Source: Nemertoderma westbladi
Lineage: Eukaryota > Animalia > Xenacoelomorpha
DNA length: 64,000 bases
NCBI GenBank assembly: GCA_032718475.1
Contig: JAUCBJ010002087.1
Coordinates: 438-64,437 of the forward strand
Reading direction: 5' to 3'
This document shows, piece by piece, positions 19,006 to 41,168 of the stretch. The first letter of the stretch is position 1, and every line of letters begins with the position of its first letter. Below the pieces are notes generated by a model. That model saw nothing but the letters and a program-made list of their open reading frames with translations. It made no database searches and was not told where the DNA came from. Position numbers and translations under genes: made by a program.

Positions 19006-20190
19006 TCATCGGCTAGCTCCTGGGTCTCTCGGGCTCGCTCCCCTCTCCAGATACACCAGTCTACCTCCTGTAGACTCTGTTGACGGCGTCCTTGAGGCGT
19101 CACTTCCCGGAACCGGCGACGACGTTCCCTGGGCACCGACTATCTCCCGACTGGTGCTCCTCCCTCGGCCTCGTCCCATTTGCCGTGTCCCTGTGGGCGC
19201 CTCCGCCAACTCCTCCTTCTGCAACTTTATAGAATGGAACTGCTCGTCCTTGGCTTGACGCTTGCCAAGGACTCCTCCTTCTGCAACTTTATAGAATGGA
19301 ACTGCTCGTCCTTGGCTTGACGCTTGCCAAGGACTCCTCCTTCTGGTACTTGCCACGAGCTGTGAGCTCCGGCTGTTGTCGCTGTGGGCGCGGCGGTCCG
19401 TTGCTCCTCCACTCGTTCAGAGGTCAATGACCCCAAACGAGTCTCCTTAGGCCGCCAATTGTGCGCTGGGTAATAAATCTAGACGTATATATCAGAGCGA
19501 CGATGATATATAAAGGATTGGACATATTCGGGCTTAATAATGCGTGCGTCGAAACTTCCCGAAATAATTTGGAGTAAATATCGTATAAATAGCGGATCGT
19601 GGGTATAGTTAGTAGACGGATGGATGGCGCGAATCTCGTCTGGATACTCAGGCGTGAGCTTCCTCTCTTGGTGAAGCGAAGTGAACGTGGTCCAGGAACT
19701 CGAGTCCCGTGCCGCTTCGCGCCGCGCCTCTAGGTCTTTATAGGCTCGGTATAGCGAAATGGCCGCCGCCGTGTCTATCAAAGCGGGTGTCGAACAGGTT
19801 TAATCTCCGTATACGGATCTAAAGTCGTAACGGTCGGCGTAATGGGTCTCGGAGGTCGCTTTCCGCTGAAGTCGATACTGATCATCGGGTTGCTCATTGG
19901 GTAACCTCCCTCGTTATATCTAAGGAATTGGTGAGCTTGACATCGCGTTAATATTGGTTCAGGATGTTGCTCGTTCAGTCGATCGGGAATCGCCACGTCT
20001 TGTTTATTCATGCATTCACCGCATTTGTAGAACAACTTGTATACGCTGAAGACCTTTGGCGTCTCCTAATCCTCGCCTCGAGTCCTCCGGTAAAGATGCA
20101 TCCCGTCGAATTGATCTCGGAAGGCAGGTAGCGGTTCATCGTGTCGCAAATACATATATCCCAATAGTTCGTTACGCAAACCAATTACAC
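19006..20190 (-). pseudogene. Degraded accessory ORF region of element A (between pol and 3' LTR)
   Basis: GC-rich coding-like run of fragments: ..YMYLRHDEPLPAF..GED*ETPKVFSVYKLFYKCGEC.., a frameshift at ~19780 into IDTAAAISLYRAYKDLEARR, then 19436-19006 broken by a 62-bp tandem duplication. Confidence 0.55.
19209..19345. repeat. 62-bp tandem duplication (~2.2 copies)
   Basis: Unit starts actcctccttct at 19209, 19271 and 19333. Confidence 0.9.
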
Positions 20191-20912
20191 TGTGGGTAAA
20201 TCAGTTAGATGTCGCCGAAGGACAGACCTCTTGAGCCCCCCCACCCCCCCACCCCCCCCCCCCCCCCCGCCTTCCAGCAGTTCAGGTTCGACTCTCTAGA
20301 TCTCGTCTCATTCCTAACTATCCTCTAACCTATTCCCATGCATAGCGCAAAACTTTGGAGGTAAACTGGCCGTGACCAACTCACTTTTTGATGCCCAAAC
20401 TACTCCCATTACTTGTACTAAACTACAGTAGTTAGAAAGGGCCATAATCTCAATGCTCGACTATACCAAACCCACAGGTTTGATAATCGAACATCACACT
20501 TCACTGCAAACTACCGAGTGGGGTCCGTGTACGCCCTGGTGCTACTAACCTTTAGCACCTTAGTTGTACTGTTGGCACCAATCTGTGGATATTGCTAAAC
20601 TCAATTTACACTCCTACGTAATATAGCCGTCACCATGGTTTCTAAATGCTATTTTCCAGGCTTCACGACTTTTCAAATTACTGTTTATCTATAGACGAAT
20701 TCAAAACACGTCTATACACAGCGTCTGGAATTGTCTTGGGTTCACTTCTAATTTTTTTTTTTTAAATTTTCTAATTTTCCAAAATTTTGAAAATAAAATT
20801 TTGTTTTGATACCCACCAGACAAAACTCAACGCAAATCACCACAAACCCGCTCCTATGCATTTCCTAGTATTTGCATACGAGGAATGCATACGAAGTGAG
20901 TTGCGTCCAACA

Positions 20913-23900
20913 CTAATTTTTATTTGAGGCAGGAGACAAATTACAATCCCCCGTCTCGATGCGTGTCTCCTCTAATAACACGATATCTTGGACCGGTCGG
21001 TCCAAGGTGTGTAAACCATTAGTTTTACACTTCTTTGGGTGCGGACACTTGCACCTAATTTTCACAGTGACTGTGAGCACTATGTTTTGCACGTCTGGGT
21101 GTGTGTGCAAGATCACTCCCGTCTCCCAGTACTTTCTCTTGACAATCGGCTCGGTTATCAATACGTAATCTCCCCTTTGGAGACTCCGAACCGTTTTGTA
21201 CCACTTTGTTCTGGTGGATATGGTGGGAAGATAGTATTCCCGCCAATATTCCCAGAATGTGTACGCTACGAATTGAGTTATTTTCCAGCTCTTACGACTG
21301 TATAGGTCGGCACTAATGGGTTCTGATGCCGGCACAAGAAATGCTGGACTCTGCATTAGCAAATGATTCGGCGTTAATGCAACACCGTCTGGTAACATAG
21401 CTATCGGCCTCGAGTTTAATGTATGCTCGATTTCGATGAAAGCTGTGACCAGTTCGTCGTCGGTAAGTTGTTTGTTTACAGGCAACGTTTTGGCAATGGC
21501 CTGCTTTACAGAGCGAACTAAACGCTCCCAACTTCCTCTTCTCCAAGGACTTTCTGGAGTATTAAATCTCCACTCTACTCTTTGCGGCAAAAGTGCTGCA
21601 GAAATTTCCTTATTCTGTGCCGCTTTATGAACCGCGTTCAACTCGCTATTCCCTCCGACAAAGTTTGTACCCTTGTCAGAGTAGAACGCCTTTACTAGTC
21701 CTCTCCTGGCCATAAATCTCTTCAAGGCCAGGAGCAGAGATTTGGTCGACATGTCTGCCACACGCTCAATGTATATGGCTCTACTAGCCATACATGTCAG
21801 TAGCAGACCCCATCGCTTGTGGGTCAACCGTCCACTCTTTGCTTCAATCGGACCAAAACAATCCACCCCTGTGTTCGTAAAGGGTGGGTCATATGCCTGC
21901 ACTCTCGCTTCCGGGAGTTCAGCCATCTCCTGTTCCAATACTCTGGCGTTCACCCTCTTGCAAACCAGACAGGCGTCATACATAGTGCCTACTGCCCTGC
22001 TTGGCTGCAATAAAATGAATCGCTGTCTCGCTGCCGACAAACAGTGTAACTTTCCCGCGTGATGCAACCTCTTGTGTATATCCCATAGAATCGCTCTTTG
22101 CAATTCTATTGGGTGACTAGGGATTATCACTGGGAACCTGAACTGTGAGTTTATGTCGACAGTCTGGATTCTCGATCTATGACAAATCAAACCCTTATGG
22201 ATTAATGGACTCCATTTTCTAAGGGGTTTATAGAGAACTGGTCGTTGAGCCGATAATAGATAGAATTCTTTGGGGAAGGTACACATTTGATAATGTTTCA
22301 AATGCTTTAATTCCGCTTGATCAATCTCATCCTCTGTCAGAGGTTGTTTCAATTTCTGAATTCGCTCACTATTAGTGCTCGTTTGTTCTCCTAAATGTTC
22401 CGAATGTTTTATACAAAGGTACGAAATGTATCGGCTTAACCACGCAGTTCTTTTACAAATTGTCAGCCAAGAGGCAGACGAATTTAGTAATTTGTCATAA
22501 ACACTACATGGCTCAAATGCCAGCGATGGTTGTCCGCTAACTAATGGAAGTTTCGAATCCAAACCCGCAGGTTTGGAAACCAAAGGCTCCATTTTGTCAG
22601 TCATTTTCTGTCCGTCACTTACTAATTGTGACTCCGGTTTAGTCTGTAAGGGTGGTTTTATGTCATAACTTACCCTTCCGGACCTAGTAGTCACGTAAGT
22701 CTGTTGGTCTGACAGGTCTCCGGGCCGCTCCAATGACTCTTCAGGCCGCTCCAATGACTCTTCAGGCCGCTCCAATGACTTGAGTTTGGCTTTAGACTTT
22801 GACTTAGAGACTTTCCCCACTTTGACTTCTGCATCTTCAGGCATCGGATTGGTCACTATCTTTAGTCGCTCTGGCCAATGTTCCTGTGTCCTCGTTAGAA
22901 AATCAGGTCCATGCAACCAAAACTCCTGCGACTCTTCCTGACAGAATTCCGCCGGCATTGCACCTCTCGAAGTTATGTCGGCCGGGTTTAACACTGCCGG
23001 ACAATGTCTCCATTGTTCCTTCGTCGAAAAGTCAACGATTTGAGCGCGTCTGTTGGCCACAAATGTCTTTAGTGCAATATTGTCGGCCGCAATATATACT
23101 AACACTAAGGATGCGTCCGTCCAATAGAATAAGGTCAATGTCGTGTCTAACTCCTTTGTTATCTGCTTACTTACCTCGACTGAAACTACAGCCGCCTGTA
23201 ACTCTGCACGAGGGACAGTCATGTATTTGACCGGCATTGTCTTTGATCTAGAAGTCACAAAAGCCGTCTCAAATTTATCCTGACTCACCTCTCGGCGAAG
23301 GTAGGCTACCATACCAAAGCCGGTGTCACTTGCGTCACTAAACAAGTGGAGTTCGAGATCAGCTGGGAATACCAGCTGATTCGGAAAGTAGGAACGGGGT
23401 ACATCTATATTTTTCAATAGATGCAACTCGGCCTCCCACTCTCTCCACTGCTTTGCATGTATAGGAGATATTGGTTCGTCCCACTCTAAGTCGGACAACC
23501 AAATTTTCCTCATGCACGCTCGTGCCTGTAATATTACCGGACTGATAAATTTCATCGGGTCAAATAGTCTACTTAAAGTCGATAAGCAAATTCTCTTTGT
23601 CAAAACTTTGTCTGGGCTACTGGGCTCAAATCTAACTCTTACCTGGAATTTATCCGTGTTCGGATTCCAAGCGAGTCCCAGTACTCGCGCCATGGGGATG
23701 GGTTCTACCCCCAATTCAATGTCTCCGCTCCCGCGATCCTTTACCGGGAACGACTCTAATAGGGCCTCCGAGTTCGTAGTGAACTTGGTCAGAGGAAATC
23801 CCCCTGTAGCCAAGCACTCCTGCAGGCCGTGAGCCACTTCTATGGCTTGTTCCGCCGTGTCCTTGGACACCAATCCGTCATCCATATAGAAGTTTCTCAA

Positions 23901-26900
23901 GATGGACTCGATAACCTCTACTGGATACTTACCAATCTGGGCTGTTGCCGTTTTCTTTAGAACAAACAGCGTGCCATTCGGACTATCGCGGGCGCCAAAT
24001 ATCCTAACGTACATTTGGTATGTAACCACTGGGCCGGATAAGTCTTCATTCTCGTACCAGAGAAATCGAAGACTATCCTGGTCTGCCTTACAGGCTCTTA
24101 CCTGGTGGAGCATCGCCTCGATGTCACAAGTAAATGCGAATCGCCGCTGTCTAAAACGCAACAGTATTCCTATCAAATAATTATTCAGGTTGGGACCATC
24201 CATCAACTCTGAATTCAGGGACATACCTCTATAGACTGCTGCGCAGTCGTTGACTACTCGGACTTTGTCTGGTTTGTCAGGGTGAGTCACATAGTGGTGT
24301 GGGAGGTAATAAGTCTGGTCTGTCACTAAGTCAGGGTCCTCTACCTTCCCAGCAAATCCCTTGGCAAAATAGTTGTTGATCTGGGCGCAATACTTCTCCC
24401 TAATGTCTGGATTCCTTAACAACCGAGCCCTTACTCCGTTCAATCTTTTCAAGGCTAAGCTGTAGTTGTTCTCCTACTTAGGTGGTTGTCGACGCCACAA
24501 CATTCCAACTTCAAAATGTCCAGTCGGCAGCAGACGTATGGTGTCTTCCATCATCTCCAGCGACCGCTTCTCATCAGTGGACATGGCTAGGTCATATCCA
24601 CCGGGTTCCATTGCGTCCCTATCCAGCCATTCGACGGTTCTAGCTCCTGTCTCGAGGTCCTGGCGTATCAATTCCTTCTGTAGCTCCTCCTCACTGTATT
24701 GGAAAATGTCGAGGTCTCGATATTTAGCCACTTGACCCTCCACTATGTCGGTATAAGTCAAAACGTTACTCAGATAAGTAGCGTGGGCCGCTGAACCAGA
24801 CCCACGGGTCTGATAACAGTAGTCCTCGGGTTCACTATCTGTCCGGTCATTGTGAAGTGGTTCCGACAACCTAACATTATCGGGAATCAACTCCTCGCCC
24901 GACTCGCTAAAGTCACTATAGTGGTCGATACAGGTTCTCCTAAACTCGTCTATGTCTGGTGGTTCTACTAACGGTGGTTGAGTTATAGGCTGTAATTCGT
25001 CGTATCTGTCTATTGGCTTGTCGCCACCTGTAAACTCATAAGACATGGGTACTCTTGTATACCAACCTAGTATGGTCCTATGGGCATGTGGTCCATTGAC
25101 ATGCGGCTCAGCTGGTCTCGTTTCCCATATTTGGTGGGCGATCAGCTGTTCTGCACCAATCAACATAGAAACATTCCTATAACCTACCTGGTGTCTCGGT
25201 ATTCTGAGCTTGTCAAAATACTCCTGTGCTATGGGACTCATTGGCGGCACCTTACCTAACTGCCTGCCGAATCCCTTCATAGCTAGACACTTAAATCCGT
25301 CCAATGGCAAAGCTTTCCGTTCTTGTCGAGTATGTTGGTCTCTCGGAAGTAGGGAGTCTAGTTCTACCGAAATTCTGTGTCCCTTGAGGTCTCCTACTCC
25401 ATGCATAGACTTCAACTCTATTTGGATCTCCTCGGCGTCCTGGAAGCTAGAAACGGCTCTCGCCACTTCCTCGTCGATATACGATAATGTGGACGCAGTG
25501 TCCAACATCACATATATTCGCTTAGATCCCTTATCGCCAGTAAGTTTCACCGGAATCACGCTAAATATTTCCGACGTGGCCGATGATAAATACGTCCACG
25601 CGCTGGTCGATGAACTATCCGCGGTGAAACCTTGGCAGGTCACCTCTCTTGCGCTCGACTCGCCATCCTCGTCCGACGAACCTGGTTGATAACCATCGTC
25701 CTGAATGCCGGTATATGTATTCCTTCTTATCGATACGGGTTCTTTGCTCCCCTTCCTGTGAGGATTTCGCTGTAAGTAACGGTCCGTTGGTGTATGGAAA
25801 TCCGCATGTAGCAACTTGTGATGTAGTCTGCCGCATTCCATGCATCCGTCCTTGCTGTTCGGGCACTGCCGCCATACATGACCTGGCGCAAGACATGCCC
25901 AACAGGTGTCCAACGTCCGCACTTGAACTCTTCTCTGTTCTGAATTTAATTCTTTGAACCGTCTGCAACTATCTAACTTATGGTCGTCAGATCTTACCTC
26001 CTTTAGTAAACAGTATTGGCAACCTACAAATCCATCCGGCAACTCCTGTTGCTTTAACCTAGGTCTATCTAACCGCTCACCTGACCATACTCGCGAGTCT
26101 GATCTAAAGGCTAGGGTACTCGAATTATATCTGTCTACTGAGTTAAATGTCACAGTGGTCCTGTCATCGTCAAAACTTACCATAGACTTACCGGTAACAG
26201 GTTTAGACTCTCTCATATTCTCTTCTGAGAAGTTTGATTTCATCTCTGCTACTGCGTCTGTGGCTATCATGTCATGAATATGCTGAAGTGTCAATACTTT
26301 ACCTTGGCCCTCCAACTTATTCTCCAATTTGCGCCATTTTTGTCGATAACGCATGTTTAAACGTCTTATTACGCTCTTTAAAACTTCGGCGTGATCACCA
26401 TGATGAGGTAGATTCACCGTCCTCAAGATGTCCAATGCGTTCGAAATAGCATTCGCTAAGTTCAACAGCTCTAACAGAGTTGTAATCCTTCCGCCCTTAC
26501 CCAAGTCTTCCACTATCGACTGTGCCATCTTGGTTTTATTCCCGTAGATGTCGCTAAGTGTCTTTATTGCCAACTCAAATGCCCTTTCATTGCCAACGAA
26601 GTTGTCAGCAATGGCTCTAGGTTCTCGATGGACCATTTGAAGCAAATAGTTGAATTTCTCATTGGGAGTAAAGGTGCTGTTGGTTAGCTGTTCATCGACA
26701 TAGGTTTTGAACGTCCTCCAATGCTTATGGTTACCCATAAACTTCTGGGGTTGTTGCGTCGGCAGTCCTTGCCTAGCAGCAAACTTACCTATGTCCCTAA
26801 GGGTTGCGTCGTTCCGGGTTAACAAATGGTTTAGTTCCGCAGGGTTGTTAAGTCTGGTCCTTTCCCGGTGGTTCAAACTTACCTGCTCCGCGTCCGTCCT

Positions 26901-27635
26901 TCTTTCCTTATAGTTTCGGGACTTCTGACGTCTCATGTCTTCCTCTTCATCGCTCGATTCTGTGTCAGTCCTTAGCGCTCGCGATGGTTTGCGCGCCGAG
27001 GCCCTGATCCAAGCATCCTGAATAAATCTTTCGGCTGAATTTTCGAAATCGGGATTATGGATATTCGGGACAGGCGTCCTTACCTGAGGTCTATGTGGTA
27101 TAGTTTCCTCCGATATGCGTACTCGTTGACTAGGTTGGACTTTATCTAACTCAGGCCTGCTAGGATTAGAATTACTTCTTACCTGGGCTGCTTCCTTTAA
27201 CCGTAGGTTGCTAAGCATGTCCGTTATAGGTTGGATGTGCAGCGATATAGCTTGCGCTAAACTAGCACTCAACTCATCCCTCGTAATAAATTCCTGGCTA
27301 GGGTTCTGTTGTATAGTCGGCTCTATCTGAGTAATCCGCTGTCTCTCATATGATCCCTCTTCCGGTTTAACCCGGAAGTTCTCCGTCGAACTGGGTCGGC
27401 GCTCCGTCTGCGTATTCCAAACCCGCGGGTTCGGTTCGCCAAATACTCGGCCCGTCGGAGTTTCTCCTCTAAACTCTTCGTTCTCGCGTTCGGTATGTAG
27501 TGGTGCGGTGTTCTGATGCCGTGGATTCTGCGCGATAGGTGAAGCACTAATACCAACTGGTGTGCGATATGTAGAGAACGGTTTAGCGATCCGTGTACTC
27601 GTAATAGCTGGACCAGGTATAGGAATTCTGGTCAT
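20913..27635 (-). CDS. BEL/Pao gag-pro-pol polyprotein of element A, with one in-frame TAG at 24474-24476
   Basis: Triple Cys/His knuckles (CQYC..HKLDSC, CWACLAPGHVWRQC, CMECGRLHHKLLH); MLDTAS protease; YYLPHH, KVRVVNDCA and NFYMDD RT; LHLFSDAS..VPRAEL RNase H; GVDCFGP/SDKGTNF/GSWERLV integrase. ORFs 24474-27701 and 20913-24452 are the same frame (PPK*ENNYSLALKRL). Confidence 0.92.
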
Positions 27636-28564
27636 CGTCGACTCGCAGCCTTCTGCAGTGCGAACAGTTCTCGCAACTCGGTCCCTACACTCGCCCCACA
27701 TTCTTCGATCATTCGCATCCCCTTCTCGGCGATTTCATTCGCCTTTCTAGTCCGTTCTTCGCTCTCTAAATTTAATCTCGCACTTTCCAACTGCGCCAGT
27801 TTACGTTGTTCTTCTTCCCTCGCAAGTCTCGCTGCGCTCTCTTCTTCCAGTCGCGCCTTCTCTTCGTATAATGCGCGTCGCTCTTTCTCGATCTCGAATT
27901 CGCGTTCTTTGCGCTCGCGTTCGAGTTGGAATTCGCGTTTCTTCTGTTCGCGCTCGAATTGAAGTTCGCGTTCTTTCGCTTCCCGTTCGCGTTCAAGTTG
28001 GAGTTCGCGTTGTTTCTGTTCGCGTTCGGCTTGAAGTTCGCGTTCCTTGCGCTCGCGTTCGGCTTGCTCACGCTTACTTATGTCCTCCAACTCGCGCAGC
28101 TTCGCGTCTAACTTACGTGTGCGCTCCCGTTCTCGTTCGGCTTCCTTCCGTGCCTCCGATGCACGCAAAACTTCCGCCTGCTGTTCGTCCAGTCGGCGTC
28201 TTCTCTCCTCTGCCGAGTTGTGAGAAACAAGGGATCTAGCACATATAACCTTCCCTCGCGCGTGACTAACCTGGGAATCGCCACTGTCTCTAGATGCGTC
28301 GTCGGGTGGAGTTAACGTTCTCTGTTGGATGTTGTCCGTCGTTGGTAGCACCTGACCCGGTACCACCACTCCACTCTGCATCAGCCAGCCGGTAACTTCC
28401 CGTTGATACATGCGCTCCTCTTTATCCTGCATATCTTCCCGCTCCACTAAATTTCTCGACACTGCGTCATTCACCTGAGTCGCCTGTGCTTGTGATGCCC
28501 ATAGCAACCAGTTCTCCGTCCTAACTCGTTGAAATCGCTCCGATAACGCGCGGTGCTCTAACAA
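27632..28564 (-). CDS. Upstream coiled-coil ORF of element A (gag N-terminal part or a separate ORF)
   Basis: E/R/Q-rich quasi-repeats (ERELQ.ERE). Start codon uncertain (first ATG at MQDKEE). Its TGA overlaps the ATG of the next ORF. Confidence 0.7.
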   Translation of the reverse strand: MLEHRALSERFQRVRTENWLLWASQAQATQVNDAVSRNLVEREDMQDKEERMYQREVTGWLMQSGVVVPGQVLPTTDNIQQRTLTPPDDASRDSGDSQVSHARGKVICARSLVSHNSAEERRRRLDEQQAEVLRASEARKEAERERERTRKLDAKLRELEDISKREQAERERKERELQAEREQKQRELQLEREREAKERELQFEREQKKREFQLERERKEREFEIEKERRALYEEKARLEEESAARLAREEEQRKLAQLESARLNLESEERTRKANEIAEKGMRMIEECGASVGTELRELFALQKAASRR

Positions 28565-28866
28565 GGCTGCTAAAACCCTGTCGTAAACCCTCGTAACAGC
28601 AATCAGCCTAATGTACTACTGTACTATTGTACGAGACCAGTGAATACAGTAATCTAAACTAACAGCCTAAAGGAATACACTCTCTGTCTTACTGTACGCA
28701 GTACAGTGCCTAATACAGTAATCTAATTCGTATTTACTGTACACAGTACAGCAAAACAAAACGTCCTTTACTGTTACGAAGTAACAGTAAATAATACAGT
28801 AATCTAACTTAACAGCCTAAGAATACACTCGTCACTGTAAGCAATAGGCCTACAGCACACAAAAAA

Positions 28867-28876
28867 CGTCCCTTAC
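28867..28876 (-). other. Non-tRNA primer-binding site of element A (GTAAGGGACG), complementary to its own LTR
   Basis: Abuts the LTR-terminal CA; reverse complement of the LTR-internal sequence at 30479-30488 (and 12612-12621). Confidence 0.75.
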
Positions 28877-28963
28877 TGTTAAACGAACTACCCCAGCCTA
28901 ACCAATAAAGACACAAAACTGTTCTATTTACTAGACGGGGCAATCAGGAGCGTATATTACTAA

Positions 28964-29583
28964 CTACGCCTCCACCACGGCAATCCTAAACGCGGTCGAC
29001 CGCCCTGCAGAGAACGGCGAGCTCTCCCTCCTCGAACTCACAGGCTACAGGCGCCGCGCTGCAGCCCAATTCATCTCCAATGGCTCGCACCACAAGCTCT
29101 GCCGCAGTAAAGGGTGTTGGCGGCCGACCCCCACATGCGTCTGCCGTCTCTGCGACGACCAGGCGACGGACAAGGACCACGGCCTCAGTTGCACTGGCGT
29201 CCCGACTCTACTAACAACAGTAAAACGCTCACTGTTCCTGTACGCCGTGAAATGATCTATTCTAATTTTTACACGATCTATTTTAAAACTTCCCCCAGCC
29301 ACGCTATAACCAAACATTGAATTGTACAATATTTCAACCGTGCAACGACATTTTATTATATTATATACATTTTTACTATTTTTATTATATTATATATTCA
29401 TTTTATTATATCCCCATCCCCAAATAACCTATAAATAATGTGTATCCCATTTTCCATTATCTGTCATACAATACAGTATTATATGGTCACATAACAACTT
29501 TCATATTTTACAGTAGGCCTACCTACCTTTATGTGCATGTTTATTTTATTTACACCATATGTTGGTATTAAAGCTTTCGTTTC
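28964..29583 (+). mobile_element. 5'-truncated non-LTR retrotransposon (LINE 3' end)
   Basis: Absent from the other LTR copy; 10-bp TSD ATATTACTAA (28954-28963, 29584-29593); open frame ending GSHHKLC..CVCRLCDDQATDKDHGLSC..YAVK*; AT-rich 3' UTR; ATTAAA plus a short tttcg/tttca tail. Confidence 0.85.
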
Positions 29584-30601
29584 ATATTACTAAATGTAGG
29601 GTTTCAGGTACGGAAAACCACTACTTCCCGTTGGATGGCGCTAATCTGCCGTCCGCTAATATATTTCCTAAATTTCTACGGCTCCTACTAAATTCTCGTT
29701 CCTTTCTCTACCAATTACTCGATAGAGAGCTAACTGTTCGAATATATGAGCCACGCGGGAATAACCAAAACAATAAACCCGAATCGGCTCCCTAAGCTGA
29801 CTTAAAACGAGTGTGAGAGATTTTACACTCTGAGTGTATTTTATAGCCTAATACTGTAATATTACTGTAAATTTGCGCTTACAACTACGTCCTTTCTAAT
29901 CGAATCTAATCGCAATACTGGGGTTCCCTAACAGAATATGTGAATGTGAGAATATTTAAAAATAATCGAAAATCGGTACGGTAATTATTTCGGGACTCTA
30001 ACTTATCTGCGGCTGGCTTTAGGCCAGCAATTTACTGATGCTCGTTGCGTACTGTATACTGCGATGTGAATTTTGTCCGCTAATTCAAATAACCGCCCAG
30101 CGTGAATAGTGTACGGTACTCTAAATTTATTACCTAACTACCCTCCACTATGCAGCGTACAAATTCCTAATTTTACTAATTAATTTCAGTCACAAATATG
30201 TAACGGCGTACTAATTACTAAGTATTCCAGAATGCGCAATTCTAAATTATTATGCAACGGGTCACACTAGCAACAGCCTAAAATACCGTATTATTTTCGA
30301 CCTAATCAGAAATTAATTACAGTAAGCTAAGAAATAGAAATCAATCAAAGGGAAAAGAGCGCCTATCCAAGCATTCGTGATTTATTAGGCACACTTTAGT
30401 AACGCACCAATCAGCATAACACAATCGCGATCTACAGTTTAGCTAGCAATTCAGAACTCGCAATTCGCAACTCGCAACGTAAGGGACGCAGATCTCTCCC
30501 GGCTACGTCTAAGCTTCCTAACTAACCCAATTCCTGTCCCCCTAGTACTACAAAATAGAGACAAAACCTGGATCATCAGCCCCTAATTGCCGAACCGGCG
30601 T

Positions 30602-31860
30602 TGTAAAAGCTTCTGTGGGATATAACTGGCCCCTTTGCTTCGCAATCCAGTTTCCCCCCAGGCGCTGGAATACTCTAAAAAAGGTTCTCTAACTGTATAT
30701 CTATTCCCCTCGCCCGCAAGGTACCGTTACAGGTGTTTTAACGGACATAAAAGTCATTCTGCTATATACGTGTTTTAGCGGACATGGTAAGGCAAAAAAC
30801 CTACAATGCACCAAATGCCTTTCACAGCTTGGCCGTGATGATTCATATTACGACATCTAACAGCCGGTTGCTGACATGGAAACAGCCATTGGACGCATGG
30901 TTCTTTGTTTGGCTTGAGCCAATCAGAGCGATTTTTCCTGTCGACGTGTAGCTTTTCGGCCGATCATAAGGAGAGTGTTCAGTCTTACTGTTTTCACTTG
31001 ATACTTTGTTGTTATTGCTGTCTAAGCCAGAAACACCGGCTCTAGAGTTAATTCTTTTCATACTTTAAGAGGAAACATTAGTAGGCTTAAATTATAGAGC
31101 GTATGACTGTTATCAGTCAAATCCATTCACAATTCAATACTTTGTTGTTATTACTGTTCAACATACATTATTATACTGCTATTTACTGTTGTGTTTGGTT
31201 GAATATTATTTGGAGAACATATATAAAGAACCCAAATTTCCCAATTTTCTTGATACACTACAGGTTAGAGAGACGGGTTATATATATAGCGATTGCGACT
31301 TATATTGTTGTGGTTTGTAGTGAATTTAATGCTATTTGATAAGCACTACATTGGTCCGTTGCTATTCCCTTTATATATGATAAAATACATTGACGGGCGG
31401 CAAATTAATGAGCAGTATTGTGTGTTACCGGTAGTGTGCATGATTGTGACCGATAACTAAGCATTTCCTAAAGAATGCGACTCATACGTGAATCATAAGC
31501 CTTACCGACTTACCGTTGTGATTGGTATAAGTCATATCTCTGTTTACTTAGATAGAGCGCCACGTCCTAAAAGGAACTGTTAATATTTCCCGAAAGTGAA
31601 TAATATTAGTCAGAAATTAATTATTAACGATCAATCGAATAATACAATACCGTAAGCTTCACTGCAATAATAATCTAAGCCGACAGAATCCAGCCTCCCG
31701 GGATTATCCAGCGGATGAATGGACGCGCACTAGGCTGGCTTCTGCTAATGTTGTGTTTATTGGTATTAAATATTTGTCATCTTCTAAAGTATATTTATAA
31801 ATCAAAAGACATATAAATTTTGGCAGGTTAAACTGCTAAAGGTCTTCAAAAGCGCGTACA
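30602..31860 (+). repeat. 5' LTR of element C
   Basis: Direct repeat of 41169-42427. Confidence 0.95.
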
Positions 31861-31871
31861 ATAACAGTCAT
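31861..31871 (+). other. Non-tRNA primer-binding site of element C (ATAACAGTCAT), complementary to its own LTR
   Basis: Abuts the LTR end; exact reverse complement of ATGACTGTTAT at 31103-31113. Confidence 0.78.
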
Positions 31872-32204
31872 TGACTTTATTGCAGTAAGCAATAAAGTTG
31901 AAAGTACCGATCGACCGGTAAACCTGAACCGGCACTTCTGTAGGTCCGTAGGCCCAACTGCCCTAACCGGTACTTCCAGTATAAGTACATTAGTATTATT
32001 CGATTTTGATTATAGTATACCGGTAGGTCTTAGTATTTAATCAGGGAACGGCCGCCCTGATTTTTATTTGAGATTCTACTTATTTCTGTCGGTTTTATTT
32101 ACTAGTAGGCTAATATTGAGCAGAAGGCGTGTGACCCTGCTCAGATTGTTCAGATAATTGTAGGCTGAGCTGCTGTCTGACTGTTGTTGGGTTTGGAGAG
32201 ATTA

Positions 32205-32725
32205 CGGCGTGTGTAGAGTTTGTCTGATAAAGTGCTGTTAGTAAGTTGGGGCAGCCATATGCTGCAAGGTCAATCCCCTCTTAAAGAATAAGTCGTACTA
32301 CCGTGTTAGAACGCATACTAACTAACTATTTCAGAATCTGCATATACTGTAGTTTATTTAGGCTTGATCGTAGTCTGCCAGCGTTTTGGCCTGTGTTTGT
32401 TTGTGTGGTCTGTTCAGGTACCGTAATAGTTATTACTCAGATATTTTGTAGGCTGGATTGTTGTCTAGCTATTATTAGGTCTGAAGAGATTGCTGCGTGT
32501 GTAGAGTTTGTCTGATAAAGCTCCGTTAGTAAGTTGGGGCAGCCATAGCGGTAAGGTCTATCCCCTCTTAAAGAATAAGTCGTACTACCGTGTTAGAACG
32601 CATACTAACTAACTATTTCAGAATCTACACGTACGGTAGTTTATTTAGGCTTGGCGGTAGTCTGCCAGCGTTTTGGTTTGTATTTGTTTGAGTATTCTGT
32701 ACGGGTAGCGTAATATTTATTATTC
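32205..32725. repeat. Diverged ~288-bp tandem duplication in the leader of element C
   Basis: gcgtgtgtagagtttgtctgataaag...aagaataagtcgtactaccgtgttagaacgcatac at ~32207 and ~32495. Confidence 0.85.
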
Positions 32726-34038
32726 AGAGTTTATGCGATTATTCGCAACATTCATGTCCCCAAGTTTATTCCTACAGTAATTGTGCTTGTTATACATACC
32801 GTTATAGTTAAATTAACCCCGGTACTACACGGGCTGCTCGGCGTAGGACAAGACTGGTGACTTTGTGCTTCGGTCACTCCAGCAGATGCCGTGGTTCTTT
32901 TAACTGTTCAAGTATATTTAACTACTGATTATTTGTTATACCGGTACTTGTACCTAATTTAGGGTTTAGTGTACAGTGCTTTCCGAAGTAATTAGTGTAG
33001 GCAGTATATTTGTGTTGTAAAGTGGTTGATAGGCACATTCGTTAGCTCTATTAGCTTCTGGGTAGGAACAATCCGTGATACATAACGTAGTACCTATAGC
33101 GATACGGTTATAGGTCGTCAGGCGGTGGTATTTTCCTATCTGGACAGTACAGTATATTTACTACTACTTATTATTTAAATACCGTAGTACCCTGTCCATT
33201 GTAATAACCAGAATTCTAACCCTTTGTTAGGCTGGTTTGTAGACTTCCTGTAAAATTACCCTAAAAAATTCGTACGTAATATTTGTTGTGTTTAATTAGA
33301 GAATTAATCTCACCCATATCGTAAGTAATTTGTAGTATTAAGTAACTTAGGTAAATTAGAATTATCAGTTTTAGTGTCAAATAAATAGCACTTCACTGAG
33401 AGCTCACAGCTTCTGTGTAGTGACTCCCCCAGAAATAATAACATTTATTTCAAATATTGACAAAAACCCATTTAAACGGGTATATATCTATTATAAATCA
33501 ACTCAAACGATTTATAAATAGTAGGCCTGCCAGACAACAACTAGGTCTCAATATCAGTTGGACTACTGCTTAAATAACGGTAATAAAGTAAGTTAAAGTA
33601 ACCAAGTAACCCTAAATATTCAGAAATTCAATTATTCTAAAATAATTGATAATTGACATACCGGTATTTACCATAGGCTTATTATATTTATCTCTATAAA
33701 TTTGAGCTGAAATCATACCGGTACTCTGTAATTAATCTAGTCCGTAATTACACTTATATATACTATAAGTGTAAGCTGTATACCGGTATTCACTATAGGC
33801 CTATTATATATTTATATATATCTGTGCTAAATTTATATACCGGTACCCTGTGACAAACCTAGTTTACAATACTTATATATATATTATGAGCATACCGTTA
33901 TTCTAATATATTATATATATATCACGCTACACTGAGTAGCAGTATCGGCAATTAATTATTAGGCTAACGGTGATACTGAATTACTAGACTTACTTTGACT
34001 GTATTTGTAACCGTAGGCATTCAACTGTGTAAACAAAC

Positions 34039-37000
34039 ATGGCTGACACAAGGCAAACTCTGTCAGATAGTCTCCTAGAAACAACAGACTGTTTCTCAGA
34101 TCAAAGTGTAGAGAATCCCAGACCGAGGTCTGAAACCCCTCATACTGTAAGAAGGGCAACCCCTGCAGTGGTTGTATCAGAACCTAGGTTGGTAGAAGCG
34201 ATTTCGCATTTTGCGAAGTTAGTGAAGCGCCGTTGGTCTGCCATAGGCACTCGGGCCCAAGTCAAGCGGGATCAAGAAGAAGCTATAAAACAGCAGCAAC
34301 CTCCTAGCCAAGAACCTAGTTCTCAGCGGCCCGATAGCTCCAGTAGTTCGGATACTGTTGAGCGGACGCCCGAACGCGGAGCGAAGATGGCGGATATGGT
34401 TTATGATGAGCGGCCAACCTATGAAGAATCAACCGACGCCACTTCTTCTCAAGTGGAAAGCGAGGTGGAAAGCGAAGTGGAAAGCGAATTAACAGCAGCA
34501 GAGAAGCCGCGAACTAGAGACGCCATTGACATATATCTGTCAGACTATCAGCGATTCATAGGAGACGAAGAGTTGAGGAGACGACTGTCTGGACTTCGCC
34601 CTAATAGTGAAGGAACCAAGCTTGTGTTGGACGCAATCGATGCGGAAATGTTAGCTGCAGAACAAGCTAAATGTGATGAAAAACTCCGCCTCGTTAGAGT
34701 CCAAGAAGAACAAATAAAGAAAAGAAGGATAGAGGAACAAAAGGCGACGGCTATGGCGGCGGCTATGGCAGATGCAGAAGCAGAAAGAAAAGCAGCAACG
34801 GCGGTGGCTATGGCAGATGCAGAAGCAGAAAGAAAAGCAGCAAAGGCGGTGGCAAAGGCAGTGGCAGAAGCAGAAAGGAGAGCATCTGAGCAGACTACCC
34901 AACTGGAGTTGGAGAATCTGCAAGAGACACAAGACAGTATAAATAAACAGTTTACTGCTAATCAAATGCAGATGATGAGAAAATCTACTCCCAAGCGCCA
35001 AGGATACACATCCTCGGAGGAAGGCGATACTACCGATCCTGAAGGCGGAGGAAATAGATCTCATCTAAGTAGGCGTAGAAAAACATATTACCGTCGCAAA
35101 TTGCCTGATTTGCCCCCAGCTGTTAAAAGACAGCTAACTAGCACAGACTTAGGTAGTGCAGAACCCATAGAACAATTTATCCAGGTCAAAAGACTCCCTA
35201 CTATAGTCGATGAACCTGAAATAATTAGGCCTGTTGTTCCCAAAGTCACTTCTGTGCTAGAGACCCCTACACTTCCAGAGCTTAACTCTAAATTCCCTTT
35301 ACATAGTACTATACTGCCTGTACCCGGTGGAACAGTCCATGCAAATACCCCTGTCCAGATAGCAGAGAGGGAAATCAATAATTTGTCTCCCGTCGTCCCG
35401 CGTCAGCCCGCTACTATGTTGGCGACTCCCGCTTCGGCGGTTGAGTGGGTGGAAGAGGGACGGTGGGGGATGAATCTCCTGCTAGGACAGATGCAGGAGA
35501 CTGTCCACCAACTTAAGGGAACAGTGAGGGAAGGTAGAGCAGAGTTGCAAGAAGTGCAGCAAAGTATCGCGCTAGAACGCGACAAATTAGTCAATATACA
35601 AAAGGGCATACCAATACCCCCTGTAACATTGTGTCCACCTGTTAGGTCTGAAGTATTACATGCGCAAGGTGTGGAGCCTACACGCATCTATACTGCTAGT
35701 GAAGTTGAAACTCCTATAGCAAACCCTATTAAGGGTGATTATAGACCTGTTATTAATGATATTCCCTATAGACCTGATAATGATCCGAGAAATTTATATA
35801 CCGATAATTCGATATTAAATAACACGATGGCCCAAGAAAGCTTTACGCGTCAGATGGCTAGAACAGAAGCCCGCCAAGCGGTCAAAGTGGGAGAGATCGT
35901 CAAATTCAATGGAGATGAGATGAAATGGTTACCTTTCAACGAATATTACAAAGATAGCATACAGAACTCTGTACTATCTAACGGAGAGAAACTTAGATTC
36001 CTCATCAAGTGCTTGGAAGGACCTCCCAAGTTAATGGCGTTAAAGTTTATTGGACATCCAGATGGATTAAGACAAGTTTGGGATACATTAAACATCAGGT
36101 ATGGTAACAAGGATAATATAGCTAAGTATTTGTATGCAAAATTAGTAGCCCCCCGACACTTCCTTAGTAGCGGGATTATAGAGTTTTCCGATGAAATTCA
36201 AGAGATCTGTAGACAACTGGACTGGTTAGGTAAGTCGCATGAATATCAGAGTTCCATGGTCATTGGAGCCGTAGTCTCTACTTTACCAAAGGGTGGAGTA
36301 TGTACGCGCTGGGACAAGAAAGTGTTGTACATGAATGAACAACAACGCCGAAGCCCTACCATGGCTGATCTCATGTCCTTCTTAGATAGTGAAGTAAAAT
36401 TACAACTCATAAGGCAGTCCAGAGAGAAAACATCGGAAAATAAGGTAAGTGAGAAACCCGTTTCTAGGAGAAGGATAATACCAGTGTGTTATACTGACGA
36501 CGGCGAAAGCCAAGCTTCTCAAGAAGAGGACAGCGGGAAAGACACCGAACGATCTTACTATGACAACAAGACCTATAAAGACGTAAGTAAATACAAGTCT
36601 CGAACCAGTGACAGGAGAGAACAGGTAACAACAACTCCTCCTACGTCTCCTAAGAGAATTCACGGAAGAAAGCCCGAAGAAAGAACGAGAGTGCAGAACG
36701 TTAACCAAGTTAAGGTGAGTAACATCAAACCAAAATGTGCGCTGTGCGACGGGCCCCACCGTTTGAGTGCGTGTGCAGAATTCCTAAAGAAATCCCTGGC
36801 AGATAGACGTGGAGTCCTGTGGGATAAGCGGTTATGTTATAACTGTCTCAGACGCGGACACCAGCGGCGAACCTGTTACTCTGACGCAAGGTGTGCTAAG
36901 TGCGGCGCGAAACATCATAGCTTGTTGCACACGGAATTCGAACGAAACAGCCCGAGTCAGGTAAGTGAGCCCAAATCACATGTCCAATTCAGTGATGTGA

Positions 37001-38169
37001 ACGACACTGACCAAAGTTCTGAGTGGGAAGGATTCTATACGGACGAATTCTCCGATGCCAACGAATCCTGTTATCTAATAAATACCGCAGTGTATCGAGC
37101 ACTTACGTACGAAAAAGACACCGACACGGAGTTCCCCCCAACCACCTTTGACAAACAACCATCTTGGAAAGCTCCAGCTTCCAACGTAGGAATCAGAGAA
37201 TTTCCTGTAGTTCAAGTAAGAGTTCACGGTCTTAACAAAAGCTACATAGTGAACGCCCTCCTTGACTCCGGCAGCACAGGAACATTCATCGATCAAGAAC
37301 TAGCCGAAGATATCTTTGCTGGACAACCCAAATTCCAAACTAAGTTGAATATGTCCGGAATTATGCAGGTTTGGAAATCTACCATAACGGCAGATTACTA
37401 TGTAGGTGCGTTGTCCACCCCCCAGGATAAATTAGGAGCACAAAGTATAAGGTCAGTAAAGATGGTGGCTATAAAGAACTTCGCTACTACCCAAGCAGAC
37501 CTTTATAATTGGGACGAGGATGAGAGCATCCAACATCTTAAGATACCTCGATTCCAGACAGATTATCCTGGAGTGCAAATACTCATCGGCCAAAACGCGC
37601 ATGAGGCGCTCGAGACATTGGAGAAACGGCCTGCTCAACCGCAGCCATTACAAACTTATGCGGTAAGAACTAGAGTAGGTTGGTACTTTACTGGCCCTTC
37701 CCGCAGAACTCTTGAAGAAAGATTGCCACAAGACCGGCTACTTCAAGTAAAGGATTGGGAAGAGGGGAGCAGTGAAGTGGACGAACCCACTGAGGTAACA
37801 CCATACTCCTCAGATAATGAAGATATTAACTCCAATGTAGATCAATGGAGACATCGCCCCGAGATGATTAATATAGCCGACATCGCTTCCAGAGGAGCAA
37901 CTCCTCAAGAACGGATAGATACTCCCGGCTGGTTAGGTGGACCCGACACCCTAAGTAAAGAAGAAGATGAATGGCCTCCTCATCTTACCACTGAGGAGAT
38001 TAGACAGGCCAAGGGAGCGGAGGAAGTAACACGACAGCCTAATCGCCCAGCTGGTCGCTTAGGTTTACTGGAAAGAGACCGAAAACTGTCCGGAAACCAT
38101 GGAAGGCCGGATACTCTTCCTACGACCACTTCCCTAATTCGACAAAGATCTAGGGACTCCATAACGTAA
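34039..38169 (+). CDS. Gag-protease of element C fused to a short RNase H C-terminal remnant (1376 aa, uninterrupted)
   Basis: Coiled-coil N-terminus; KFNGDEMKWLPF gag core; CALCDGPHRLSAC/CYNCLRRGHQRRTC/CAKCGAKHHSLLH; LLDSGS protease; then QWRHRPEMINIADIASRG..WLGGP..WP, matching element A's QWRHCPAVLNPADITSRG..WLHGP..WP. Confidence 0.92.
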   Translation: MADTRQTLSDSLLETTDCFSDQSVENPRPRSETPHTVRRATPAVVVSEPRLVEAISHFAKLVKRRWSAIGTRAQVKRDQEEAIKQQQPPSQEPSSQRPDSSSSSDTVERTPERGAKMADMVYDERPTYEESTDATSSQVESEVESEVESELTAAEKPRTRDAIDIYLSDYQRFIGDEELRRRLSGLRPNSEGTKLVLDAIDAEMLAAEQAKCDEKLRLVRVQEEQIKKRRIEEQKATAMAAAMADAEAERKAATAVAMADAEAERKAAKAVAKAVAEAERRASEQTTQLELENLQETQDSINKQFTANQMQMMRKSTPKRQGYTSSEEGDTTDPEGGGNRSHLSRRRKTYYRRKLPDLPPAVKRQLTSTDLGSAEPIEQFIQVKRLPTIVDEPEIIRPVVPKVTSVLETPTLPELNSKFPLHSTILPVPGGTVHANTPVQIAEREINNLSPVVPRQPATMLATPASAVEWVEEGRWGMNLLLGQMQETVHQLKGTVREGRAELQEVQQSIALERDKLVNIQKGIPIPPVTLCPPVRSEVLHAQGVEPTRIYTASEVETPIANPIKGDYRPVINDIPYRPDNDPRNLYTDNSILNNTMAQESFTRQMARTEARQAVKVGEIVKFNGDEMKWLPFNEYYKDSIQNSVLSNGEKLRFLIKCLEGPPKLMALKFIGHPDGLRQVWDTLNIRYGNKDNIAKYLYAKLVAPRHFLSSGIIEFSDEIQEICRQLDWLGKSHEYQSSMVIGAVVSTLPKGGVCTRWDKKVLYMNEQQRRSPTMADLMSFLDSEVKLQLIRQSREKTSENKVSEKPVSRRRIIPVCYTDDGESQASQEEDSGKDTERSYYDNKTYKDVSKYKSRTSDRREQVTTTPPTSPKRIHGRKPEERTRVQNVNQVKVSNIKPKCALCDGPHRLSACAEFLKKSLADRRGVLWDKRLCYNCLRRGHQRRTCYSDARCAKCGAKHHSLLHTEFERNSPSQVSEPKSHVQFSDVNDTDQSSEWEGFYTDEFSDANESCYLINTAVYRALTYEKDTDTEFPPTTFDKQPSWKAPASNVGIREFPVVQVRVHGLNKSYIVNALLDSGSTGTFIDQELAEDIFAGQPKFQTKLNMSGIMQVWKSTITADYYVGALSTPQDKLGAQSIRSVKMVAIKNFATTQADLYNWDEDESIQHLKIPRFQTDYPGVQILIGQNAHEALETLEKRPAQPQPLQTYAVRTRVGWYFTGPSRRTLEERLPQDRLLQVKDWEEGSSEVDEPTEVTPYSSDNEDINSNVDQWRHRPEMINIADIASRGATPQERIDTPGWLGGPDTLSKEEDEWPPHLTTEEIRQAKGAEEVTRQPNRPAGRLGLLERDRKLSGNHGRPDTLPTTTSLIRQRSRDSIT

Positions 38170-39791
38170 TTATATATGGAGTGGGTGTGTGACTATATTA
38201 TTTTATATTTTTTTTATTATTATTTTATATTTAGGTATGGATTATTATGTACTTTATTATAATCGTTTTATTTAATTTTATTTAGTGGAATGTTATTTAG
38301 ATTATTTAGTAGATTAGTGCAATATATTAGTGTTTATTACGTAATTACATAATATATCTAGTGCGACGGCGAGAAATAATTCTTTTCTCTTTCCTTACTG
38401 TCCGTATTATATTATAAATGCGAGACTATAGTAAGATGACATGTCCGTACTTATTAAAGTACAATAAAGCTCCTACTATATTTAAGTATTATTGGTAGGC
38501 AGAGTATTAGGAATGCAAAGTTCAGATCCTCGTGTCTCGGCTAAACCAAGCTCTGGGTAGACCTTGGAAACGACTTGCCTCTTCACACTGACATTGCTTC
38601 GTGCGATATTGCTCTTCTACCTTATATTAAATAATACTTATAGTAGCGTGATGTCCCTATAACAGTAGCGTAAAACGCAAATAAATCTGTTAAACCTTTT
38701 GACCATCTGTAATTCTAGTCGATTAAGATATCGCGGCACCCACCGATATACTTGAAAGACAAATTCTAGAATCAGTGGTTAACGTCCCCAGACAAGTTCT
38801 GGAATAAATCGGTGCCCATCTTAAATATTAATTTAATATTTATTAAAGTCTGTAAAATTCAGATCCGTTAACAATTCTAGTCGATTAAGATATCGTAGCA
38901 CTTACCGATACTCTTAAAAGACAAATTTCATAGAATTAAGGATCCTATGTCCCCAGACCTGCTCTGGAATCAACTTATGTCAATTTTAACATCAAATAAT
39001 AAAATTCACGGGAATAAATTTAAATTCATATTTTAAATGAATTTCATAAATTGTCATTTTGTACAATTTATAACATTCCCAAAATTCCATTAATTAATAG
39101 ATCATGGGAGCGGAGATTCATCCTATTGAGTGTACTAGAGTGTGAGAATCTCCAACATATAGTCAATAGCCGATAAAATTTATAAAATCATGCATAAAGA
39201 GGATATTGACAATTAAAGAATTATTATTAAATAGCATCCCAGATCTGTATGCATGAGAATTACCCTAATTCTACCGCTAGCATTCCATAATGTCACCATA
39301 GCAACACCCACGCTAGAATTAGAAGCAAGTTAAGAAAACAATAGAGAGCTTGTCACATTGCATAGCATAGAGAATACATAGCACGCTGTTAGTATCCAAG
39401 GATACACAGTAATAACGTGACATTCTGGAAGGCACTGACTAACGGACAAATGGCCTGTATGTGTACAATTGGTGACAGTTGTGTGGAATTTGTGCGTTTG
39501 TAGGCGAATGTTACTGCTAAGGTGTGTTTACAGTAGCTAGTCGCAATTGTGAAAGTAACCCAACTCTCCTATAGAAAGAACCTAAAGTGGATTCAAGCCT
39601 TTGGGACGGACAGTGGAGTGACTTGTGCCGGTTATCGTTGTCGTACTGTTGCTACATGTTGGCGTAAATACCGCGACAACGGTACATCGGCGCTGAGGAT
39701 CCCACTGTCCGGGGGCAAAGAGAGGTGGGCAGCGACGTCCGCTCGCCTAAACATAAACTCATTTCGATATTAACAAACTCAGATAGCAGAT

Positions 39792-40781
39792 ATGACGGAG
39801 TTGATAGAAGATGATCTTGGTATCAAGGAGCGATATACTCTACCTTTGCAAGCATTTGTGGATAGCTTAATACGCGGTGAAGCCGATCCAACCATTACGG
39901 AGGACGATGGTCGTTATATCGAACCGCCGATGTCCCAAGAGCAACTTGCGCGTGAATTGGACTATCGAAAATCCACCGCGCGCTATACGCATCGTAATAG
40001 TACGTATATGGACTTCCTAACTACCGGCCATCCTATCGATTTACATGATACGGACGATGTAGACACCGAAAGGGAAATGGTTCTATTTAAATATCATACC
40101 CAGCGGAGTCGGAACGATAAAACGAGAATAGATCACGAAAATTCTATTCGTAACAGACTGGGAAGACGAACCAATATGCCTAGAATCTGAGGAGATTCAG
40201 CCTATCGCGCCCGGAACAGCGACAACGATTACATCCTAGAATGGTATCAAGGTCCACAGTGTCTCACTGCGTACGATTATCGCCATGCCAACTATGTTTC
40301 TAGGCAACGTTGTCGGTTATGCGCATCGAGAGACCACGATACGCCCATGGACACCAACGTCCGCTGTTCCTATATCCAAGAACAACCGACTATGGAAATT
40401 TATTGCGCATATTGCAGACTCAATAACCTGCACATTTTTGCGGTTTGCCCTCAATTTATGACTCAATGTCACCATTGTCAACTAAAGGGACACGCCAGTT
40501 TCGATTGCCCTTTTAATCGCGATTTGGAAAGCGTAGATGAAATGATCACACTACGTTACATTAGAGCTTGGGAAGCGAAGGCTGATTTACATCGTGATTC
40601 GCGCCATCGCTATTATCCTGAACGCGCTTACGAAGGAATTTATGCGTTCCATCCTTATCTATTCGCTTCTGTCGAACAGAAATCGCGCATATCGAGTTAC
40701 AGGAAGTATATCGACGGCCTTACGAATACCGAGCTCGTGAACGCGAGTTGGAAAGGACCATTAAACCCCGGAGGTTTCTAG
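39792..40781 (+). CDS. Accessory zinc-knuckle ORF of element C (~329 codons, one in-frame TGA at 40188-40190)
   Basis: ORFs 39792-40190 and 40347-40781 are in frame with 52 open codons between them; CRLCASRDH..C, CAYCRLNNLHIFAVC, CHHCQLKGHASFDC. Confidence 0.7.
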
Positions 40782-41065
40782 CTGCCTATAGTCAACCCAC
40801 GGCCCTCGTTCAGACCACTCGTAAAGGACCCGTAAGAGCGGCTGTCTTAAAACGCGCTCTCAAAGCCGTTAGACCCCTCTCCCCCGACGTTGATGTCAAT
40901 CAACCCGGCACTTCGACTGGCGGATACACCGTCCATAATTCTACACCCTCTGATGCAATCATATTGCACGCTTCACCCAGGAGTTATAGCCCTCCTTGTA
41001 AAGTGGCTCGCCCCAAAGAGAAAAGGACTCTGGCTAGCTTTAAAAAAAAAAAAAAAACTGCGTAA
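40748..41065 (+). CDS. Small basic, Pro/Ser-rich ORF before the 3' LTR of element C
   Basis: 105-aa open frame (TTG start) with K/R clusters; overlaps the end of the accessory ORF. Confidence 0.3.
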   Translation: MERTIKPRRFLAAYSQPTALVQTTRKGPVRAAVLKRALKAVRPLSPDVDVNQPGTSTGGYTVHNSTPSDAIILHASPRSYSPPCKVARPKEKRTLASFKKKKKTA

Positions 41066-41168
41066 ACGCCGTCCGCGCAAGAAAGACTAACTGTTTAGAG
41101 TATTTACGTATATTAGAAACTGTGATTTTGTATATTTCATAGACTCAAATCCCATTTTCTGGGAGCGG

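Follow-up and report, generated by a model that had tools for sequence, protein, structure and literature searches.

Self-complementary primer-binding sites in two nested BEL/Pao retrotransposons suggest priming by the elements' own RNA

RESULTS

Three nested LTR retrotransposons

We analyzed a 64,000-nucleotide stretch of the Nemertoderma westbladi assembly (contig JAUCBJ010002087.1, positions 438 to 64,437), referred to below as the window. Self-alignment and reading of the junctions resolved three nested long terminal repeat (LTR) retrotransposons: element A and elements B and C, which lie inside A's LTRs (Table 1). By their Pfam domains, A and C are BEL/Pao elements and B is a Ty3/gypsy element. 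Our subject is the priming of reverse transcription in A and C, where the sequence at the primer-binding site (PBS) shows complementarity to a stretch of the element's own LTR.

Element A measures ∼15 kb without its nested inserts and has a 2.2-kb LTR. Its coding order is gag, protease, reverse transcriptase (RT), RNase H, and integrase, with one frame change (near 27632-27734) and one in-frame TAG. The domains typical of BEL/Pao are present (DUF1759, Peptidase_A17, Integrase_H2C2, and DUF5641), and, as judged by eye, RT and RNase H retain their catalytic residues (for RNase H, the acidic residues). The pol region has 482 homologues, the best at 42% identity, and PF05380 was found in all 120 listed. 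The TAG at 24474-24476 (minus strand), between protease and RT, may reflect decay or programmed readthrough. Element C lacks RT, integrase, and most of RNase H, as seen with Pfam and by comparison with A. Its assignment to BEL/Pao is based on DUF1759, 23% identity to A over 656 amino acids of Gag-protease, and a 55-amino-acid piece with 45% identity to the end of A's RNase H. Both A and C have TG..CA LTR ends, a target site duplication (TSD), and a purine tract, ending in GGAGCGG, in front of the 3′ LTR. Their LTRs have no alignable sequence in common, and the description as two divergent BEL/Pao elements, made in a preliminary description of this DNA, holds. In both, ∼3 kb separates the coding region from the 3′ LTR (18156-20912 in A and 38170-41168 in C), with short open reading frames (ORFs) of no clear family; C's 3′ ORFs had no Pfam match above the cutoff, and this region of C gave one weak zinc-knuckle match (E 0.008).

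Element B has 230-nt LTRs and a TGG PBS behind a 1-nt spacer. It had been noted for its TGG-starting tRNA PBS; as a member of Ty3/gypsy, it is not a within-family control, and it stands outside the self-priming finding. The LTR pairs differ at 2/1259 positions in C, 16/2150 aligned positions in A, and 0/230 positions in B; because these differences are so few, all three elements are young. The LTR length of 2155 nt first given for A is correct for the 3′ LTR and incorrect for the 5′ LTR, which as it stands is 2787 nt long, with a 630-nt extra segment in addition to the split made by C. This segment is likely a later, independent small insertion. Both guest elements sit in A's LTRs, C ∼110 nt upstream of the A motif described below; C's insertion would part that motif from A's upstream promoter region.

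TABLE 1 Positions of the three elements and their parts in the window
Feature	Positions	Strand	Remarks
Element A	11641..43494	-	BEL/Pao LTR retrotransposon; TSD CCACA at 11636-11640 and 43495-43499
Element B	13018..17373	+	Ty3/gypsy; splits A's 3′ LTR
Element C	30602..42427	+	Nonautonomous BEL/Pao; TSD GGCGT; splits A's 5′ LTR
A 5′ LTR, upstream part	42433..43494	-	Before C insertion
A 5′ LTR, downstream part	28877..30601	-	Holds self-primer motif; terminal CA at 28877
A 5′ LTR, extra segment	28964..29593		630 nt; flanked by 10-nt direct repeat copies; not in 3′ LTR
A putative self-primer	30479..30488	-	10 nt, 3′ end AC; 3′ LTR copy 12612-12621
A PBS-position 10-mer GTAAGGGACG	28867..28876	-	Begins GT, without TGG; spacer 0
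A predicted leader hairpin	28834..28856	-	9 bp, G:U pairs included; 10 nt behind PBS
A gag-protease	24474..28615	-	Two frames, 27632-28615 and 24474-27734; DUF1759 Gag; in-frame TAG at end
A RT, RNase H, integrase, DUF5641	20913..24473	-	RT with YMDD; RNase H is Pfam Peptidase_A17
A 3′ LTR	11641..18155	-	2155 nt; split by B
C 5′ LTR	30602..31860	+	1259 nt, TG..CA
C putative self-primer	31103..31113	+	11 nt, 3′ end AT; 3′ LTR copy 41670-41680
C local hairpin	31104..31119	+	6 bp; can hide self-primer; 3′ arm holds TCAGT
C PBS-position 11-mer ATAACAGTCAT	31861..31871	+	Without TGG; spacer 0
C predicted leader hairpin	31871..31901	+	13 bp; directly behind PBS
C single ORF	34033..38169	+	1378 amino acids: Gag (DUF1759), protease motif, 55-amino-acid RNase H remnant
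C 3′ LTR	41169..42427	+	

The PBS of A and of C is complementary to its own LTR

No TGG occurs in the first 30 nt behind the 5′ LTR of A or C, so the TGG-type PBS is missing from both, as had been noted; both lack a trait listed for the family by the International Committee on Taxonomy of Viruses (ICTV), a PBS that pairs with a host tRNA at the tRNA's 3′ end. Judged by their proteins, A and C belong to BEL/Pao despite the missing tRNA PBS. In C, ATAACAGTCAT is the exact reverse complement of LTR positions 31103-31113 and of the 3′ LTR copy at 41670, and this 11-mer is not seen elsewhere in the window. In A, GTAAGGGACG (28876-28867) pairs exactly with LTR positions 30479-30488, and equally with the copy of that stretch at 12612 in the 3′ LTR; the pairing can be lengthened by one G:U pair. 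Both pairings start at the first base past the LTR-terminal CA, and the complementarity of 11 nt in C and 10 nt in A was confirmed in letters and coordinates. Each PBS is specific to its own LTR, as the preliminary description had claimed: cross-matches of A's PBS to the LTR of C, and the reverse, reach 6 nt at most, and B reaches 3 nt. Thus, A and C both show the Tf1-type arrangement, a PBS of 10-11 nt complementary to the element's own LTR from the LTR end onward.

The match is far above chance, as had been estimated on the assumption of equal base use and as dinucleotide shuffles of the LTR upheld. The observed length was reached in 2/5000 shuffles for C, 3/5000 for the 5′ LTR of A, and 7/5000 for the 3′ LTR of A; when a spacer of 0-5 nt was allowed, the counts were 7/5000, 22/5000, and 24/5000, respectively. 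Matches of equal length start at 8 of 9288 other positions in the internal region of C and at 38 of 10699 in that of A. ARAGORN predicted 0 tRNA genes in the window, and Rfam detected no tRNA-like piece in 11000-44000; on A's leader repeats, Rfam gave one weak miRNA-family match (E 0.091), under the gathering score.

A primer assembled by splicing was considered for A and C as well. The best spliced match is 9 nt in A and 10 nt, at offset 1, in C; because these matches are shorter than the contiguous ones and the donors are poor, the candidate was rejected. Several splice-like features are present. The LTR-PBS border of A (28874-28880, minus strand) reads as a splice donor, CA followed by GTAAG, and the leader of C holds seven GTAAG donors. 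An acceptor-like site lies ∼155-160 nt downstream of the motif in both elements (30319 region, minus strand, in A; 31263, plus strand, in C), and the letters after it resemble the 3′ half of the primer (5/5 in A and 4/5 in C), as in the spliced relatives described below; no usable donor was found for either site. These sites are possibly the trace of a spliced ancestor, or chance.

Related families keep the pairing with different letters

With an alignment of A's RT-RNase H and 13 homologues as the query, we collected 80 metagenome loci, the best 80 of 507 confirmed stretches, at 35-43% identity to A's RT-RNase H. The 77 loci with an RT long enough fall into 51 families at 85% identity. No relative was found among viral contigs. 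A test for contiguous matches at nine loci and others gave 3-8 nt only. At nine loci where the repeat itself sets the LTR end, there are five with a match of 10-13 nt across a GT-AG junction (each equaled in 0-2 of 200 shuffles), two with a TGG PBS and without a match, and two that miss; of the last two, L032 does match in its 5′ LTR copy, and in L045 the donor and the acceptor half are divided between the two LTR copies.

A scan by a fixed rule covered the loci that include the gag start plus flank (43/80 loci, 28 families); the 37/80 loci outside this count include L017, which matches over 13 nt, and L045, which misses. The top match was spliced and at least 10 nt long in 20/43 loci and 15/28 families, compared with 11/430 shuffled regions, and a match of any kind of at least 11 nt was on top in 22 loci and 18 families, compared with 33/430 shuffled regions. 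Contiguous 12-nt matches like those of A and C occur in two families, L040/L044 and L057, which are sister branches (support 91 and 98). The pairing geometry is present in 17/28 related families. In the matched families, 0-5 nt separate the LTR-terminal CA from the PBS; the absence of a spacer, reported earlier, is therefore true of A and C and not a rule of the group. The PBS starts with GT, which the scan rule did not demand, in 18/20 spliced matches, in L040, L044, and L057, and in A; that of C begins with AT.

In a cross matrix, PBS letters differ from family to family, and every PBS finds its partner in the LTR of its own element. Between L001 (PBS GTTTCGAAAAGTTT) and L022 (PBS GTAACGAAAAATCT), which are sister families, the PBS differs at 4/14 places, and both pair 14/14. 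PBS-LTR covariation in relatives, proposed as a check in the preliminary description, was thus found, and the two tRNA-type families lack it at the LTR end. That related families keep the complementarity with different letters supports a self-priming BEL/Pao lineage. The relatives with a TGG PBS (L003, L015, L019, and L020) have LTRs of 164-194 nt, and those of the matched self-type families measure 390-700 nt or more.

Phylogenetic trees were inferred with FastTree (71 rows) and IQ-TREE quick (30 rows), from rows without named reference elements (Sinbad, Suzu, Dan, Flow, Tas, BEL, and Pao). A forms a long branch. In the FastTree tree, A shares a clade with the majority of the matched families (support 87), and the two tRNA-type families stand apart (98); the IQ-TREE tree puts A in an open fork and splits the tRNA-type rows, and the two programs disagree on whether the two tRNA-type families are one clade. 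A lies on the marine-invertebrate/fish protein side, apart from six arthropod rows (support 91). An independent origin of self-priming, inferred at first, is not borne out: with A on a long branch that the trees do not place, gain and ancestral retention are indistinguishable. For LTR elements, hairpin priming has been proposed in a review to be the ancestral mode (PMC3601003).

Host contigs and neighboring features

The host sequencing data were assembled contigs from eight runs, none of them recorded as RNA; four of the runs were aligned to the window. Many diverged copies of both the A and the C family are among these contigs. Of 435 contig variants, the 40 best supported include none in the motif or the PBS, which makes them uninformative on covariation. 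A's 10-nt PBS is intact in one host contig that carries other sequence in place of the leader next to it, and two others diverge from C just behind the motif; each of these is a single contig and a weak observation. Summed contig depth, which is no copy number, is several times higher over C (30602-32140) than over A (27600-30600), and the nonautonomous C family may outnumber A. Over the 630-nt segment in A's 5′ LTR, depth is 26-856, versus 51,000-146,000 alongside; one 2060-nt contig carries the segment with 1 difference.

Outside the three elements, a 7.2-kb tandem array (47430-55677) with a 17/34-nt unit is open in three frames (2507, 2416, and 2009 amino acids), and a second array of 0.5 kb adjoins it. 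Three host genes lie on the minus strand: prominin (3621-6464; one frame of 946 amino acids), NADP isocitrate dehydrogenase (56882-58502; two long frames; best relatives at 75-81%, in molluscs, an annelid, and rotifers), and an NAD-binding dehydrogenase (62819-63505). Read from the frames of these three genes, the host appears as an intron-poor invertebrate.

DISCUSSION

Sequence and analysis together make it likely that A and C prime minus-strand DNA with a stretch of their own RNA and not with a host tRNA. In Tf1, according to two reports, the RNA's initial 11 bases pair with the PBS, and cleavage by RNase H falls between bases 11 and 12 (PMC7175516, PMC4600332). By inference from Tf1, the A and C transcripts would start at or upstream of the motif, and the RNA would fold back over 750-970 nt of the repeat and unique 5′ (R-U5) regions to lay the motif onto the PBS. 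The element's RT/RNase H would then cut the RNA where the duplex meets the LTR-terminal CA, with the cut predicted after 31113 in C and after 30479 in A; the freed 3′ OH would be extended through U5 and R, and once strand transfer has taken place, the 3′ LTR part of the RNA would provide the template for a new copy of the primer stretch. C, which has no RT or RNase H of its own, would borrow both in trans from an autonomous element. In most relatives, the primer would arise by the splicing of an intron in the LTR, whereas A, C, and two related families have it in one piece. Since the cDNA stops at the cut, all that lies upstream, including an intron, would be copied again from the RNA's 3′ LTR part, and a 5′ LTR intron could thereby be spliced yet inherited. 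Because the primer spans a splice junction in these relatives, the RNA may begin further upstream than the motif.

In a 1.7-kb fold from the motif through the leader, the motif-PBS duplex of A has a pair probability of 0.76-0.93, which speaks for self-priming. A number of observations weigh against self-priming in A and C. In C, the probability of the duplex is ∼0.01 in the unconstrained fold, where the local hairpin takes the motif and the PBS is otherwise unpaired; to force the duplex costs 4.3 kcal/mol. Folds over ranges as long as these (0.9-1.7 kb) are not dependable in either direction. Pairing in the flanks of the duplex is not above background in A or C (upstream fractions of 0.30 and 0.32 and downstream fractions of 0.32 and 0.94, respectively); pooled over 12 elements, which are related, hand-picked rows, upstream extension has a combined p of 0.005 and downstream extension a p of 0.52. 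Just downstream of C's motif, the hairpin arm holds TCAGT, which we take to be an initiator-like motif. RNA begun at that point would lack the primer, like RNA from the downstream starts of Tf2, an element in which a nonproductive downstream start predominates except under stress (PMC5341516); the TCAGT could be a regulatory alternative start or a refutation of self-priming in C. No clear TATA box lies 30 nt upstream of the motif in A or C, and C's primer ends in AT, versus AC in A and relatives. Among the scanned families, whose contigs are often cut, 13/28 have no spliced match and 10/28 no match of at least 11 nt. The spliced matches of L024 and L026 use sites outside the LTR; these top matches are likely chance, and the family of these loci matches at the true LTR end. 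Finally, since the relatives are 35-43% identical to A and the place of A in the trees is unresolved, they support the group and not A and C directly.

What else could account for the pairing? It might be selected for a structural reason: by closing the leader, it could serve packaging, dimer formation, or the control of translation, with priming left to a different RNA, for example a tRNA half or a small RNA. Half-tRNA priming is predicted for several Ty1/copia lineages (PMC6317226), and a predicted leader hairpin lies just behind the PBS in both A and C. We nevertheless consider a structural role with a foreign primer unlikely: in every matched family, the duplex ends 0-5 nt from the LTR-terminal CA, where synthesis must begin; the PBS letters shift with the LTR between families, which a host RNA could not follow; and Rfam gave no tRNA-like piece over the A-C region searched. 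Very unlikely, in our estimate, is chance or a relic, in which local inverted copying or an ancestral primer left matches with no present role and C is mobilized otherwise. Such matches are short, ones of equal length occur at 0.1-0.4% of internal positions, the finding was picked out of a scan of many windows, and the C duplex is not favored in the fold. Yet both matches stand at offset 0, although the two sequences are unrelated and the elements share just 23% identity in Gag-protease; A and C are young, with few LTR differences, and nevertheless have no tRNA site; and the same geometry recurs in the majority of related families scanned.

Tentatively, self-priming might instead follow a geometry other than that of Tf1, with transcription starting upstream and perhaps splicing, and with a primer that is either a long 5′ fragment, cleaved at the 3′ end alone, or derived from the second RNA copy in the particle. 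This is a variant of self-priming by the element's own RNA and overlaps it. The relatives need an upstream exon, and pairing extends upstream in L017 (fraction 0.005) and L062 (0.038). The LTR of A offers a GTAAG donor and, 60 nt upstream of the motif, a strong acceptor; a donor occurs at 30787 in C; and the R-U5 to be bridged by fold-back, 750-970 nt, is long next to the 99-239 nt of ten relatives. Against this stand the absence of upstream extension in A and C and the ease with which splice-like sites arise by chance; A's LTR alone has 7 strong acceptors.

Beyond A and C, we lean on balance toward a broader picture in which a large and widespread part of marine-animal BEL/Pao uses no tRNA and is primed by its own RNA, mostly spliced from an LTR intron and with a fixed AC end, so that splicing would gate replication. 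A and C would be long-LTR, one-piece forms, and C would keep the cis signal though borrowing RT and RNase H. If self-priming is true here, it would occur in all three LTR superfamilies (Ty3/gypsy, Ty1/copia by prediction, and BEL/Pao), which bears on whether it is ancestral or has repeatedly arisen. Such elements would presumably be freed from tRNA supply and from silencing by tRNA fragments at the PBS, and the mechanism would explain elements missed by PBS-based annotation. Through a splice-junction primer, reverse transcription in the relatives would be coupled with splicing by the host. Since the primer ends are predicted to the nucleotide, sequencing can test the idea directly.

Comparison with known systems

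A literature search found no report of a self-priming BEL/Pao element; its scope did not extend to Repbase reports and most subscription journals, where a prior note is possible. PBS and tRNA do not occur in the accessible text of PMC3118150 or PMC554778. What is new is likely a known self-priming mechanism in a superfamily for which no printed report was found, together with a splice-built form in relatives.

The ICTV profile describes Belpaoviridae as tRNA-primed, with replication poorly understood; according to the profile, the PBS is 18 nt long and fits tRNA-Arg or tRNA-Gly, the LTRs measure 0.2-1.2 kb, and the genomes measure 4-10 kb (PMC8742986). Like members of this family (genus Semotivirus), A has a DUF1759 Gag, the order protease, RT, RNase H, and integrase, and DUF5641, and both A and C have TG..CA LTRs, a 5-bp TSD, and a purine tract. 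Unlike the profile, A has no tRNA PBS, and its LTR and its total length without nested inserts are larger.

Self-priming is also predicted for the plant Ty1/copia TAR lineage (Houba and Osr-1), from complementarity of at least 10 bp located 0-5 bp behind the 5′ LTR (PMC6317226). A and C have complementarity of this length at this place. The TAR elements differ from A, C, and their relatives in being copia elements of plants, and the accessible part of that paper mentions no splice-junction primer.

A close likeness is to Tf1 and Tf2 of Schizosaccharomyces pombe, Tj1 of S. japonicus, the Tf1/sushi group, and the Tcn1 chromoviruses, which share with A and C the lack of a tRNA PBS and ∼11 nt of LTR-PBS complementarity. 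Unlike Tf1, Tf2, Tj1, and Tcn1, which are Ty3/gypsy elements, A and C belong to the BEL/Pao superfamily and have an animal host. Their LTRs of 1.3-2.2 kb and the 750-970 nt from motif to PBS set them apart from the Tf1 group, as does the primer split by an intron in most of their relatives. No significant extended stem was found around the duplex of A or C. Because Pfam and homologues place them in BEL/Pao, A and C are not members of Tf1/sushi; at most, they work like Tf1.

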